From a virus (Duplodnaviria > Heunggongvirae > Uroviricota > Caudoviricetes): a stretch of 13,303 nt of DNA. The position numbers were made by a program, and so were the translations under genes. Within the stretch, counting starts at the first letter, position 1. Every line of letters starts with the position of its first letter. The stretch is from IMG/VR virus record IMGVR_UViG_648276647_000015, positions 1 to 13,303 of that record; one strand, written 5' to 3'. Of this stretch, positions 2,462-10,958 are shown piece by piece. The notes beneath the pieces were generated by a model that made no database searches, was not told the DNA's origin, and saw only the letters and a list, made by a program, of their open reading frames with translations.

Positions 2462-3208
2462 TCACTTCGCAATTCCTGGCTGGACGACATTCGGACGCCA
2501 GCTCTCCCAGTTAAAATTCACCCATCGCCCGCCGTTCATGGTCATGCGATCCATAATCCTCTCGCCGAGCAATGTTTTCATGGCCTCATAGTTCAGGTTT
2601 GTCAGCATCCCCACGCTGCGCATCGACGCTGTCCGGCGATCAACAATCTGGTGCAGCACCACCTGCTCGTTTTTTGTCTCGCGCTGAATGCCAATTTCAT
2701 CAAGAACCAGCAGATCCACTTCGCACAGCTCCCGCAAAAATTTTTCGCCTGACTGCCCGTCGTCATAGCTGGCGTGCAGGGCGCTCATAACATCAGCCAC
2801 GGTAACCACAATCACTGTCTGACCGTCTTTCAGCAGGCGATTCCCGATAGCTGCCGCTAAGTGATTCTTCCCGGTACCAGGTTTTCCGCTGAACGCAAAA
2901 TTTGTACACCCGGTCATCAGTTCATCGGTGATGGATTTCGCCTGGCTTAACGCGTATCGCTGGCCGTCGTTCTGCACCTGGTAATTCGCAAACGAGCATT
3001 TACGGTGCAACGGCTGGATGCCAGAGCGATTCAGAATTTTTTCCACCCGCAACTGACGATTCAGGCGGTTGATCTCCTCGCAACGTTTCTGGCCTTCAGC
3101 AAGTTGCCACTCACGCCACTCCGCAACCGTTCTGAATGGGGCGGTTACATGTGGTGGGGTCAGTCTGCGGATACGCTCCAGAACGCCGCCTGTCGCAATA
3201 TTTTTCAT
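2462..3208 (-). CDS. ydaV: DnaC-like replicative helicase loader (AAA+ ATPase), 248 aa
   Basis: Walker A-like [17 protein letters not shown] and Walker B LLVLDEIG; length and position immediately downstream of the initiator gene match Rac YdaV / phage P-type loader. ATG at 3208 with RBS; stop of upstream gene 7 nt away. Confidence 0.8.
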
Positions 3209-3214
3209 GGTCTG

Positions 3215-4003
3215 TTACCCCCTGAAGCCTGGCGGGATCGCACTGTCCGGCAACGAGACGGTGTTAACCTGTCGGAGCAACGTCTCAGGCCGAACACCTT
3301 TCGGCGCGAACAGGCCCTGGTATTCATTGGCGATACTGTGTCGAATCACCTGCTCAGGTGTAAAACCCTGCTGGCGGAATTTTTCCAGCTCCCGTATCGC
3401 CCCGTTAGCGCCCTGCTCCGTTCGAATCGGTTTTCGCAATGCCTGCCTGAACCGGACCCACTCATGCCAGAGTGTTTCCGGCAACCAATCGGGCAGCTCA
3501 ATAGCCTCCGGCTCAAATTTTTTAGACGCTCGTTTTTGGCGAGGGGGATTTAGGGGGAGATCAGTATTTATATCTTCCTCTTCCTCTTCCTCTGGTAACG
3601 CTTTTTGATCCGTTTGTGTAACGCTGCCAGCGTTACCTTTTCGTTTCAGTTCGCGTATTTTTGTAACTCGCTCGTTTGTAACCGCCCGTTTTTTAGAGCT
3701 TTTCCCGTTATGACGTTCAAAGTTAGGTAGAGAAAGCCCACCGTCATTTTCGACCAGCCATCCAACCTGAATTAACGCATCAGCAAAACCAGCCATAAAA
3801 GTGATGCGATCTATTGCACTTTTTGTAACGCCGCGAGCGTTACAATCTGCATTACCGTCTATCATTTGTTGATCCGCCCATGCCCAGAAGCGAATAACCT
3901 TCCCTAATGCGGCATCTGGATCAATATTCAGAATCTCAGCAAGCCTGAATATTTCCGGCTTATCCGGCGTAATAACCTCGAGCTTTATCCAGTTTGAAGC
4001 CAT
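3215..4003 (-). CDS. ydaU: Putative phage replication initiation protein (YdaU / DUF1376-like), 262 aa, acidic EEEEEED linker
   Basis: Position upstream of the DnaC-like loader and downstream of the cro/cII-like genes; contains repeated palindromic DNA motifs (listed separately) as origins within lambdoid initiator genes do. ATG at 4003 with AAGGTG RBS. Family assignment from memory. Confidence 0.65.
   Translation of the reverse strand: MASNWIKLEVITPDKPEIFRLAEILNIDPDAALGKVIRFWAWADQQMIDGNADCNARGVTKSAIDRITFMAGFADALIQVGWLVENDGGLSLPNFERHNGKSSKKRAVTNERVTKIRELKRKGNAGSVTQTDQKALPEEEEEEDINTDLPLNPPRQKRASKKFEPEAIELPDWLPETLWHEWVRFRQALRKPIRTEQGANGAIRELEKFRQQGFTPEQVIRHSIANEYQGLFAPKGVRPETLLRQVNTVSLPDSAIPPGFRG
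3617..3637. repeat. 21-bp palindrome TGTAACGC-TGCCA-GCGTTACc (copy 1 of 3), inside the initiator gene
   Basis: Read directly; half-site-like TGTAAC also at 3662-3667 and 3677-3682 in the same orientation. Confidence 0.8.
3824..3844. repeat. 21-bp perfect palindrome TGTAACGC-CGCGA-GCGTTACA (copy 2 of 3), inside the initiator gene
   Basis: Read directly from sequence. Confidence 0.8.
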
Positions 4004-4015
4004 TTGTTTTCACCT

Positions 4016-4036
4016 TGTAACGCTCGCAGCGTTACA
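4016..4036. repeat. 21-bp perfect palindrome TGTAACGC-TCGCA-GCGTTACA (copy 3 of 3), in the ydaT-ydaU intergenic region directly upstream of the initiator RBS
   Basis: Read directly from sequence; sits 13 bp upstream of the initiator start codon. Confidence 0.8.
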
Positions 4037-4080
4037 TTTAACTGATACCGAACAAAACAATCCGGCACGATCAATTTCAA

Positions 4081-4503
4081 TCAATGCACTACGACAGAAT
4101 CGCCGGGCGACCCACCACCGCTGAAATGTGCTTTCCGGTAAACGGCCTGGACTGCATCATCATGCGCATCAATTGCCGTACTCAACGCTTCCTGCGCCGC
4201 CAGTAATGCACGGCGCTCCAGGGTATCGAAGATGCAGAGTCGGTGACGCAGCTCGCGCGGAAGAATTGCCAGAACCGCAGGGATGAGTTTCTGAATTTTT
4301 TCCCTTTGCGCTTTCGTTTCACCTTTCAACCAACGGTGATAGATATTCTGCTGATTGTTCCAGTCCTTGCCTGGTACAAGGGGCAATTCGCCGCCCCCCT
4401 GGCGCAGATATTCTTCAGTAATTGCGTTAGCGACCCACGCCTGCCCTTTTTCGGCTGCCAGGGCTAACAACACTGATTCGATATGCTCATGCCTGATTTT
4501 CAT
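4081..4503 (-). CDS. ydaT: CII-like regulator YdaT-like protein, 140 aa
   Basis: Sequence (MKIRHEHIESVLLALAAEKGQAWVANAITEEYLRQGGGELPLVPGKDW...) and 140-aa length match my recollection of Rac YdaT; ATG overlaps the stop of the upstream Cro-like gene as ATGA; AGGAG RBS 9 nt upstream. Confidence 0.8.
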   Translation of the reverse strand: MKIRHEHIESVLLALAAEKGQAWVANAITEEYLRQGGGELPLVPGKDWNNQQNIYHRWLKGETKAQREKIQKLIPAVLAILPRELRHRLCIFDTLERRALLAAQEALSTAIDAHDDAVQAVYRKAHFSGGGSPGDSVVVH

Positions 4504-4742
4504 GAATCAACCGCTCCTATGCTGTTTTCGCTATGCTTACCGTCTGGGGGGAATACATCGTCAAGTCCACAATGAGCGCCAAGCCGATTAAGGGTAGAAA
4601 CAATTTTTCTGCACTCCTCTAGTCCAGGGGTACGAAAATTTGCTTCGTAATTTGCCAGTCGGCTTTGTATCCACCCTAACTGAACAGCAAGTTGTCTTTG
4701 AGACAGCCCAAGCTGTTTTCGATATGTTGAAATTTTGTTCAT
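4500..4742 (-). CDS. ydaS: Cro-like HTH (XRE-family) regulator, YdaS-like, 80 aa
   Basis: HTH signature QRQLAVQLGWIQSRLANYE; divergent from the repressor gene across an operator region; GGAGG RBS with 6-nt spacer; first gene of the minus-strand operon. Confidence 0.8.
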   Translation of the reverse strand: MNKISTYRKQLGLSQRQLAVQLGWIQSRLANYEANFRTPGLEECRKIVSTLNRLGAHCGLDDVFPPDGKHSENSIGAVDS

Positions 4743-4838
4743 TGAAAACCTCCGATGACAATTTTAAACACATCTTGTGTTATATGGTCAAGCTGTTTTG
4801 TGTTTTATGTAAATCACGATTCGTGATACAAGGATGCA
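4743..4838. promoter_or_regulatory. Divergent immunity control region (oR/pR-pRM-like) with two 15-bp palindromes: AACAC-ATCTT-GTGTT (4767-4781) and ATCAC-GATTC-GTGAT (4813-4827)
   Basis: Leftward promoter candidate: -35 TTGACC (plus-strand 4786-4791) and -10 TTTAAA/TAAAAT (about 4761-4766), with the first palindrome in the spacer. Second palindrome lies 12 bp upstream of the repressor ATG. Confidence 0.6.
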
Positions 4839-5258
4839 ATGGAAAAAGAAAACGAAAAAATTGCCGCTAGTAGGCTCAATGACAAAATTGCAATGCGTCT
4901 TAAAGAGCGCAGGCAGAAGCTTGGTTTATCTCAAGGAAAACTTGCTGAAATCTGCGGATGGACGCAATCGCGTATAGGTAACTATGAGGCGGGCAGCAGA
5001 AATGTTGGAGTGCATGACGCTGTCGTATTGGGAAAGGCACTTGGCATATCTCCTCCTGAGCTCCTCTTTGGAGAACAGGAATCTTCTGAATTGTGGTTAA
5101 ATGAATCCCAACGAAAACTTCTTGAGTTGTTTAACCAGCTACCGGGCTCAGAACAACAACGAATGATTGAGCTATTTGAAGTCCGGCTAAAAGAAATCGA
5201 TGAGTATGTAGAAAAATATTTGAGAGGCAGGCTTAAAGATAATCCCTCACCGGAGTAA
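4839..5258 (+). CDS. racR: Prophage repressor, RacR-like (XRE-family HTH, no S24 peptidase domain), 139 aa
   Basis: HTH signature QGKLAEICGWTQSRIGNYE in the N-terminal half; divergent to the cro-like gene; 139 aa is too short to include a LexA-type autocleavage domain. Symbol assigned by context with the YdaS/YdaT-like pair. Confidence 0.7.
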   Translation: MEKENEKIAASRLNDKIAMRLKERRQKLGLSQGKLAEICGWTQSRIGNYEAGSRNVGVHDAVVLGKALGISPPELLFGEQESSELWLNESQRKLLELFNQLPGSEQQRMIELFEVRLKEIDEYVEKYLRGRLKDNPSPE

Positions 5259-5288
5259 TGAGCTTGCTATCACAGTAATATGCCAATC

Positions 5289-5312
5289 AGCCCGCTATCA
5301 GCGGGCTTTTTT
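5289..5312 (+). terminator. Rho-independent terminator after the repressor gene
   Basis: Stem AGCCCGCT (5289-5296) / AGCGGGCT (5300-5307), 3-nt loop, followed by TTTTTT. Confidence 0.75.
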
Positions 5313-10731: not shown

Positions 10732-10958
10732 GCGCAGCCACAAAGCTCACAGGAGAAAAACCAGTGCGATACACAAAAGTCAAACCATGCCCTTTTTGTG
10801 GTTGTCCATCAGTAACGGTGAAAGCCATTTCAGGATATTACCGCGCGAAGTGTAACGGATGCGAATCCCGAACCGGCTATGGTGGAAGTGAAAAAGAAGC
10901 ACTCGAACGATGGAATAAACGAACCACTGGAAATAATAATGGAGGTGTTCATGTATAA
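10728..10958 (+). CDS. Lar-like zinc-ribbon protein (putative restriction alleviation), 76 aa
   Basis: CPFCG ... CNGCE double CxxC motif and EALERWNKR segment resemble the Lar family; occupies the lar/ralR position after the recombinase genes. ATG 10728 overlaps the exo stop (ATGA) and has GGGGAG 8 nt upstream; ORF-track start 10722 is too close to the RBS. Confidence 0.5.

Follow-up and report, generated by a model that had tools for sequence, protein, structure and literature searches.

The early-right operon of a Rac-like Escherichia coli prophage, contained in the 13,303-nucleotide stretch analysed here (the window; IMG/VR record IMGVR_UViG_648276647_000015), carries three 21-bp palindromes, or dyads, in and just upstream of its replication initiator gene. 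With a probability of roughly 0.72, these dyads are recognition sites for dimers of the initiator, which would bind them through its winged-helix-like amino-terminal domain (N-domain), and they mark a lambda-type origin inside the initiator gene. The sites co-vary with the N-domain, as expected for a lambda-type origin that lies within its gene. The analysis as a whole is comparative and predictive, and the structural models of the initiator are of moderate confidence.

The entire window was searched for TGTAACGC-N5-GCGTTACA with up to three mismatches allowed, and 200 shuffles served as the null. Exactly three matches were found; the shuffles predict 0.04, and none of the 200 reached three. 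The dyads and the elements around them, in the direction of the minus-strand initiator gene, are:

4016-4036: dyad 0, a perfect copy (TGTAACGC-TCGCA-GCGTTACA), non-coding.
3849-3856: degenerate half-site GCATTACC, reading GGTAATGC on the gene strand, 12 bp before dyad I.
3824-3844: dyad I, a perfect copy (TGTAACGC-CGCGA-GCGTTACA), within the part of the gene that encodes the N-domain.
3677-3682: lone TGTAAC half-site, reading GTTACA on the gene strand (codons V-T); weaker evidence, because it is without the CG of the conserved TAACG core.
3662-3667: lone TGTAAC half-site, 15 bp from the copy at 3677; weaker evidence for the same reason.
3617-3637: dyad II, TGTAACGC-TGCCA-GCGTTACC, with one mismatch; the copy reads TGTAACGCTGCCAGCGTTACC.
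3594-3601: terminal half-site GGTAACGC, reading GCGTTACC on the gene strand (codons A-L-P, in a frame unlike that of the dyads).
3573-3593: minus strand, polypurine tract, (GAGGAA)3-like on the gene strand and encoding an EEEEEE linker; polypyrimidine on the plus strand.
3559-3572: modestly AT-rich patch past the polypurine tract, GATATAAATACTGATC on the gene strand.

Each dyad has arms of 7-8 nucleotides and a spacer of 5 nucleotides, and the full dyads lie 192 and 207 bp apart, a spacing wider than lambda's, as the preliminary description of this DNA had noted. That description had also placed the three palindromes at these coordinates and reported five TGTAAC hexamers in one orientation, above chance. 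Both observations hold: all five hexamers are on the plus strand (starting at 3617, 3662, 3677, 3824, and 4016), and two more are on the minus strand (3839 and 4031), making seven in the 420 bp from 3617 to 4036, both strands counted, versus 4.9 expected for both strands of the entire window. The half-sites at 3594-3601 and 3849-3856, the polypurine run, and the in-frame placement of the internal dyads are additions to it. Dyad I encodes CNARGVT (residues 54-60) and dyad II encodes GNAGSVT (residues 123-129). The terminal half-site starts 23 bp downstream of the start of the dyad II right arm (gene offsets 402 versus 379). The degenerate half-site falls in a 12-nucleotide (four-codon) segment absent from most relatives; in the alignment with them, the four-residue insertion appears as DGNADCNARGVT in the window versus DGNAGSVT, and to judge from the sequence the segment may stem from duplication of a half-site unit. 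Dyad 0 ends 12 nucleotides ahead of the initiator ATG, inside the 77-bp gap that follows the ydaT-like gene, and its right flank merges into the Shine-Dalgarno sequence AAGGTG.

Conservation was examined in 14 phage loci collected with tblastn and in 80 non-redundant genomic loci collected with an N-domain profile. Among the latter, GTAACGC-N5-GCGTTAC occurs at the place of dyad I (about +148; +148/+160) in 72 of 80, and at the place of dyad II (+337 to +393) in 74 of 80. The bearers come from a broad range of hosts: Enterobacterales, Pseudomonas, Burkholderiales, Xanthomonas and Ralstonia phages, Planctomycetota, Verrucomicrobiota (including Akkermansia), and an Ignavibacteria metagenome-assembled genome. 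The preliminary description had named conservation at synonymous positions across homologous genes as a check on its proposal, and the outcome is strongly positive. Third codon positions of dyad I carry 1.0-1.6 bits of information, versus 0.08-0.33 at other invariant glycine, proline, and arginine codons of the same domain. Codon choice is extreme: at the sites, glycine is GGT in 73 of 80 (p = 6e-28) and valine is GTT in 70 of 74 (p = 4e-23), and the leucine of the terminal half-site is TTA in 68 of 70, versus 112 of 837 elsewhere (p = 2e-50). The GCG TTA codons of that half-site are kept in 74 of the 80 loci. In most members the peptide encoded by dyad II is GNAxSVT; three phages (L001-L003: Klebsiella phage ST11-OXA245phi3.2, TL-2011b, and Enterobacter phage BUCT554) use another frame there, which gives VTLAAL. 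Because third positions are frozen, codon choice is extreme, the frame of dyad II differs among members, and dyad 0 is non-coding, the constraint evident in these sequences acts on the DNA rather than on the peptide.

These data bear on the least probable of the rival explanations, that the repeats have no role in DNA binding and either follow from a repeated peptide, G-N-A-x-S-V-T, or form a conserved joint at which gene modules recombine. The in-frame placement of both internal dyads in the window, their similar heptapeptides, and the position of the mosaic junction with K-12 YdaU, which directly follows the polypurine tract, are what such an explanation would have in its favor. A peptide motif does not account for frozen synonymous positions, for the VTLAAL frame, or for a non-coding dyad 0; the dyad peptide, moreover, sits in a loop modelled with low confidence, and the conservation spans phyla whose genomes could hardly recombine. 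The peptide-repeat reading was rejected on the synonymous positions and the VTLAAL frame.

The same alignments separate conservation of sequence from conservation of pairing. The core TAACG/CGTTA is invariant in all 72 dyad I sites and all 74 dyad II sites. Breaks are frequent in the outermost and innermost pairs (27 of the 72, 36 of the 74), and only one or two of them are compensated. With an invariant core, many broken pairs, and so little compensation, the alignments indicate that the sequence is conserved rather than the pairing. The spacer varies at its three central bases; next to the arms it mostly has T and A, and the palindrome may therefore have 8-nucleotide arms around a 3-nucleotide spacer. 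It is very improbable that the dyads are mRNA hairpins or cruciforms that govern translation, RNA stability, or priming by their structure. Each could form a 7-8-bp stem with a 3-5-nucleotide loop, dyad 0 lies just 5' of the ribosome-binding site, and dyad II on the plus strand (3618-3636, antisense to the gene) is the only terminator-like match in a scan of 3200-5300. However, besides the uncompensated breaks, all copies in a genome have the same sequence and diverge together, which a structural role would not need, and the isolated half-sites that form 12-bp arrays are unable to pair. A search against Rfam gave no match, and the hairpin reading was rejected on this result together with the broken pairs and the invariant core.

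All three dyads are real. They are not equivalent: dyad II belongs to the core described below, dyad I is a distal site kept in 72 of 80 loci, and dyad 0 is specific to a subclade. Four of the loci without dyad I (L033, L045, L055, and L087) also have a different loop peptide. Dyad 0 is limited to an enterobacterial subclade and absent outside it; a copy stands at -32 to -44 in Shigella, Erwinia, Mixta, Winslowiella, Serratia, and Pantoea, where the upstream genes and flanks are unrelated. Outside the subclade, the initiator gene abuts or overlaps the preceding gene. Between dyads I and II, which lie 189-243 bp apart in relatives, no consistent helical phasing is apparent (by inspection, with no formal computation). 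Four Verrucomicrobiota loci (L029, L034, L036, and L043) carry two full dyads 23 bp apart (+346 and +369) in addition to the dyad at +148, an arrangement nearer to the lambda-like tandem layout than that of the window.

The identity of the sites changes with the type of initiator. In diverged lineages the layout is kept and the half-site is changed, with all copies in a locus altered together:

epsilon15, SPN1S, and BUCT711: GTCCGC-N7-GCGGAC at +65 and +344/353, plus a terminal GCGGAC.
Ralstonia phage Raharianne: GTAGACG arrays in both places.
Planctomycetales metagenome-assembled genome (L061): GTTGCGC-N5-GCGCAAC in both places, plus two GCGCAAC copies at a 12-bp period.
L059, L087, and a Vibrio phage: GTCACG..CGTGAC, in both places in L059 and the Vibrio phage and in the second place only in L087.
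L095: CTAACG..CGTTAG in both places.

(L010 is among the GTCACG-type loci.) Control initiators, which combine a C-domain of the window's type with another N-domain, have different repeats at the same position, in the linker-coding part of the gene:

Salmonella phage SPN3UB: six lambda-like ATCCCCGAAAACGGGGAT iterons at a 22-bp period.
Morganella phage IME1369_01: GTCTCTAA..TAGAGAC at a 24-bp period.
K-12 Rac ydaU: AGATGTTCAAACA repeats in the linker-coding region.

N-domain swaps bring other repeats with them, so the sites travel with the N-domain module. By analogy, sites that move with the N-domain display the behavior of initiator sites in lambdoid origins. Within the N-domain, the residues ALTAKRVA follow K104-x-R106 in proteins of the GTAACG type and differ in clades with other half-sites; the helix at residues 103-119 is accordingly a candidate reading element, in an association that is confounded by phylogeny.

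Around dyad II, the elements form a shared plan. Aligned on this dyad, family members have between one and three GTAACG half-sites in direct orientation, repeating every 12 bp; the dyad; a CGTTAC half-site, 11-12 bp on in relatives and 23 bp on in the window; and a polypurine tract, (C)AGAGAAGAGAAGAG, that follows the last half-site immediately and always abuts it. Half-site hexamers number 9.5 per kb between -60 and +430, versus 0.24 per kb in the flanks. The 21-nucleotide tract of the window, which abuts the half-site at 3594-3601, is its only homopurine or homopyrimidine run of 15 nucleotides or longer. Family-wide, the 30 nucleotides past the last half-site are 0.83 purine, versus 0.54 ± 0.08 elsewhere in the same genes, and the arginine codons of the tract are AGA in 112 of 115, versus 75 of 1145 elsewhere (Fisher, AGA plus AGG versus CGN: p = 1e-70). 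Given this codon bias and purine excess, the E/K/R-rich linker peptide appears to be dictated by the DNA. The tract is proposed to be an unwinding or single-strand-binding element, and the likely origin core spans 3559-3637: dyad II, the terminal half-site, and the polypurine tract with its AT-rich patch. Dyad II, half-site, and tract encode residues 123-143, between the folded N-domain and the linker and C-domain, and control initiators with the same C-domain have their iterons at this same N/C junction.

Just beyond the tract, palindromes made of a C-run and a G-run (for example, TCCCCCCTAACCCCCCAAGGGGGA and ATCCCCCCCGGGGGAAT) recur where coding for the C-domain starts (peptide PLNPP), K-12 YdaU included. 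They lie at 3540-3562 in the window, where the element takes the form of a direct repeat, TCCCCCTAAATCCCCC; at 1931-1954 in L001; at 1953-1976 in L011; and at 3142-3159 in L015, the K-12 Rac locus. This element may be peptide-driven or may be a further DNA element.

The region is 99% identical to many E. coli chromosomes, and its genes are:

4839-5258, plus strand: DicA-like repressor.
4500-4742, minus strand: Cro-like helix-turn-helix protein.
4081-4503, minus strand: YdaT/CII-like protein.
3215-4003, minus strand: initiator, 262 residues.
2462-3208, minus strand: DnaC-like helicase loader of the YdaV type (NF009043, 5e-153; DnaC, NF005931, 2e-90; IstB/DnaA ATPase Pfam hits).

The initiator matches PHROG families of replication initiation proteins (phrog_2509, 1e-89), and its residues 77-236 match an 'O-like' PHROG. 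It comprises a winged-helix-like N-domain (residues 1 to about 120), a disordered linker (121-170), and a DnaT-like C-domain (170-262). AlphaFold models of the N-domain contain two helices, a poorly defined loop (residues 49-60), two further helices, a β-hairpin, and the basic helix at 103-119; a disordered linker and a three-helix C-domain follow. The fold class of the N-domain is winged-helix-like. The dyad I peptide CNARGVT sits in the interhelix loop, where the predicted local distance difference test score (pLDDT) is about 50-65. The N-domain matches no Pfam family even at E ≤ 10, the lambda O N-terminal family included, and a scan of the initiator against NCBIfam gave solely a sub-threshold match to the DnaT tail. 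The DnaC-like loader encoded directly downstream is presumably the partner that the initiator recruits. Four features of this context count in favor of an origin: the PHROG replication initiator, the winged-helix-like N-domain, the DnaT-like C-domain, and the adjacent DnaC-like loader.

The label ydaU, which the preliminary description had given to the initiator gene, fits one half of the protein. Only residues 144-262 match K-12 YdaU (84% identity, BLASTP), and the N-domain of the K-12 counterpart is DUF1376. The junction of this mosaic (window 3215-3575 versus L015 3100-3477) falls at residue 144; YdaU homology therefore begins right after the polypurine tract, and the origin core coincides with the point of module exchange. 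Further mosaics or fusions of the initiator module seem to exist, to judge from their appearance: a large set of 376-residue E. coli and Salmonella proteins (P0011-P0058) shows 95-100% identity to the initiator over only 57% of its length, and other related proteins carry DUF1627 (PF07789). In the window itself, a loose trio of GTAACG hexamers is located in the DUF1627 gene. This hexamer occurs 19 times in the whole window, versus about 4 expected and a maximum of 10 in 200 shuffles. The 12 copies outside the origin region (1576, 1941, 1987, 2038, 7223, 7424, 9622, 10812, 10852, 11473, 11737, and 11986) are isolated and without dyads, even in the clusters at 1941-2043 and 10812-10857.

Three helix-turn-helix regulators are encoded just upstream of the initiator gene (4081-5258), and dyad symmetry fits dimers of such proteins. 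That the dyads are operators for one of them (YdaT/CII-like, Cro-like, or DicA-like) is nevertheless highly improbable. Dozens of phages and prophages carry the dyads downstream of genes that have no relation to these regulators, and K-12 Rac has ydaS, ydaT, and racR yet no GTAACGC dyads; its initiator has a different N-domain. A binding site is known, furthermore, for YdaT of prophage CP-933P, with the published box TTGATT-N6-AATCAA; its main site lies at the ydaS/ydaT junction (PMC9986795). In the window, CTGATTTTCATGAATCAA at 4493-4510 matches this box with one mismatch and occupies the same position, from the end of the Cro-like gene into the beginning of the ydaT-like gene; the dyads, which lie elsewhere, are unlike the box. 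The YdaT-like protein, which the preliminary description had listed as a candidate binder, is thus unlikely to be one, and YdaT was rejected in this role on two grounds: its box maps to 4493-4510, and other phages have the dyads but no YdaT. Right after the ydaT stop and upstream of dyad 0, the minus strand at 4065-4080 reads TTGATTGAAATTGATC, with two direct TTGAT(T/C) repeats. These resemble YdaT half-sites or the CII-type TTGC-N6-TTGC and could belong to a YdaT-dependent initiator promoter.

If the dyads are initiator sites in an origin, replication might begin as follows. Transcription from the Cro-side early promoter would yield the initiator, whose dimers would fill dyad II, the half-site beside it, and, at spacings of about 200 bp, the distal dyads I and 0. 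N-domain dimers would bind each dyad with half-site centers 12 bp apart, and extra protomers would occupy the phased half-sites. The resulting complex would destabilize or open the adjoining polypurine tract, and the DnaT-like C-domain would then bind the exposed single strand, bring in host DnaB through the DnaC-like loader, or both. The distal dyads would probably aid assembly or regulation, either by looping or as roadblocks in an autoregulation that limits read-through into the initiator and loader genes.

The most serious rival explanation, although an unlikely one, makes control the main purpose: the initiator would bind, but dyads 0 and I would be autoregulatory operators, roadblocks, or titration or handcuffing sites, with strand opening possibly elsewhere. 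In plasmid Rep proteins, inverted repeats that carry the iteron half-site are autorepression operators. Dyad 0 is well placed for such a role, adjoining the ribosome-binding site 12 nucleotides before the ATG, and it goes with the initiator module whatever the upstream gene; dyad I lies about 200 bp from the polypurine core. On the other hand, a promoter and terminator scan of 3200-5300 found no sigma-70 consensus promoter between ydaT and the initiator (4004-4080), and most family members are without dyad 0 and have an initiator gene that abuts or overlaps its upstream neighbor. Dyad II, for its part, always lies beside a half-site and the polypurine core, at the position where control initiators have their iterons. 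Since no promoter was found in 4004-4080, the operator role of dyad 0 is unproven; dyad 0 might equally be a transcriptional roadblock or a looping partner. Dyad 0 does carry the half-site, and the gene may be read through from upstream. Of the preliminary description's proposal of an origin or an operator, then, synonymous conservation and N-domain co-variation support the origin, and the operator upstream is the part left unproven.

Several points weigh against an origin of lambda type bound by the initiator. The co-variation of site type with protein clade is confounded by phylogeny. The dyads are dispersed, whereas lambda-type origins, those of the control phages included, have tight arrays at 20-24 bp. 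No marked AT-rich unwinding region is present: the maximum in 3200-4120 is 0.73 AT per 30-mer. About 8 of the 80 loci have no dyad I, which therefore cannot be a general requirement of the family. A motif that stays nearly invariant from phylum to phylum is unusual where the origin specificity of phages is concerned. Finally, keyword searches of open-access full text, from which the older phage literature is largely missing, found no description of the motif or of the origin.

A more speculative picture accommodates the dispersed layout and, in our view, is doubtful but deserves mention. Here the family, spanning phyla, would have a split origin of distinct design, in which a core of dyad, phased half-sites, and tract is joined by one or two distal dyads about 200 bp off that act by looping; polypurine (GAGAA)n would replace the AT-rich element; the DnaT-like domain would capture the purine strand in single-stranded form; and GTAACGC recognition would be almost frozen, between Enterobacteria, Planctomycetota, and Verrucomicrobiota, by lock-in within the initiator coding sequence.

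An initiator-bound origin within the gene invites comparison with ori-lambda, in which O dimers bind 19-bp iterons, imperfect inverted repeats that lie midway along gene O with an AT-rich tract beside them (PMC7466680). As in ori-lambda and the origins of lambdoid and Shiga toxin (Stx) phages (P27, 933W), the putative origin of the window is inside the initiator gene at the junction of N- and C-domains. Its sites belong to the same size class, about 19 bp, of inverted repeats suited to initiator dimers, and a strand-asymmetric tract (polypurine here, easily opened in the lambda type) stands beside the last site. In both, site sequence is tied to the N-domain, and an exchangeable C-domain works with the helicase loader encoded next door (PMC7466680). 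The differences are equally clear. The N-domain has no detectable Pfam similarity, and the initiator is not homologous to O, its only tie being the 'O-like' PHROG match. The dyads are dispersed, versus four to six in tandem in ori-lambda; the additional sites are lone half-sites, repeated every 12 bp in relatives, not arrays of dyads; and the adjoining tract consists of GAGAA/GAGGAA repeats and is not clearly AT-rich. In place of lambda P, the presumed partner is a loader of the DnaC type. Even close relatives among lambdoid phages have differing origins, whereas here one motif is common to several phyla. The system would work like ori-lambda without being a member of the lambda O family.

K-12 Rac, with its genetically defined origin oriJ and its ydaU-ydaV genes, has the same order of repressor, Cro-like, YdaT, initiator, and DnaC-like loader genes, and a C-domain 84% identical to that of the window. 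Its YdaU, however, has a DUF1376 N-domain (9e-27), which the same scan did not detect in the N-domain of the window initiator, and its locus has no GTAACGC dyads. The window therefore carries a different origin-specificity module. In the ydaU linker of K-12 Rac (L015, 2972-3078) are five AGATGTTCAAACA-like direct repeats, at spacings of 33, 33, and 12 bp with one distal, and an inverted TGTTTGAACAT; these repeats are candidate initiator sites of oriJ, for which no sequence-level definition was found in the open-access literature.

Iteron plasmids with winged-helix Rep proteins (F RepE, pPS10 RepA, R6K pi; RepA_N of staphylococcal plasmids) show no sequence homology to the window initiator. They also differ in layout: the sites in the window lie within coding sequence, overlap of an operator with a promoter is not evident, and the C-domain is DnaT-like. 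DnaT itself (primosomal protein I, of PriA restart) aligns with the C-terminal 90 or so residues of the initiator (170-262), including the terminal IPPGFRG, and relatives carry the corresponding Pfam domain, PF17948. DnaT is not sequence-specific and has no origin, however, whereas the DnaT-like module of the window is fused to an N-domain predicted to be sequence-specific. The initiator ends in VNTVSLPDSAIPPGFRG (3215-3240), almost the same residues as the VNTVSEPDSQIPPGFRG with which E. coli DnaT ends, a match suggestive of a common peptide for docking to a replication protein of the host.

That an origin can lie inside its initiator gene is textbook knowledge. The same cannot be said of the family, its motif, the dispersed layout, the polypurine element, or the constancy of the motif across phyla; dispersed dyads, polypurine tract, and motif constancy depart from the lambda paradigm. 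Together, these results provide a concrete candidate for the origin, and for the sequence recognized, in an initiator family that numbers at least about 2,400 proteins (profile search, E ≤ 1e-5), annotated mostly as 'hypothetical' or 'primosomal protein I' and with an N-domain that has no Pfam model. The protein loop and linker would be a natural case of dual coding, their sequences dictated by DNA sites and polypurine tract, and the combination of motif and tract could be used to locate origins in prophages and in metagenomic phage contigs. Moreover, at least two origin-specificity types exist among the 'ydaU' genes of Rac-like prophages, which bears on Rac replication and excision phenotypes outside K-12.

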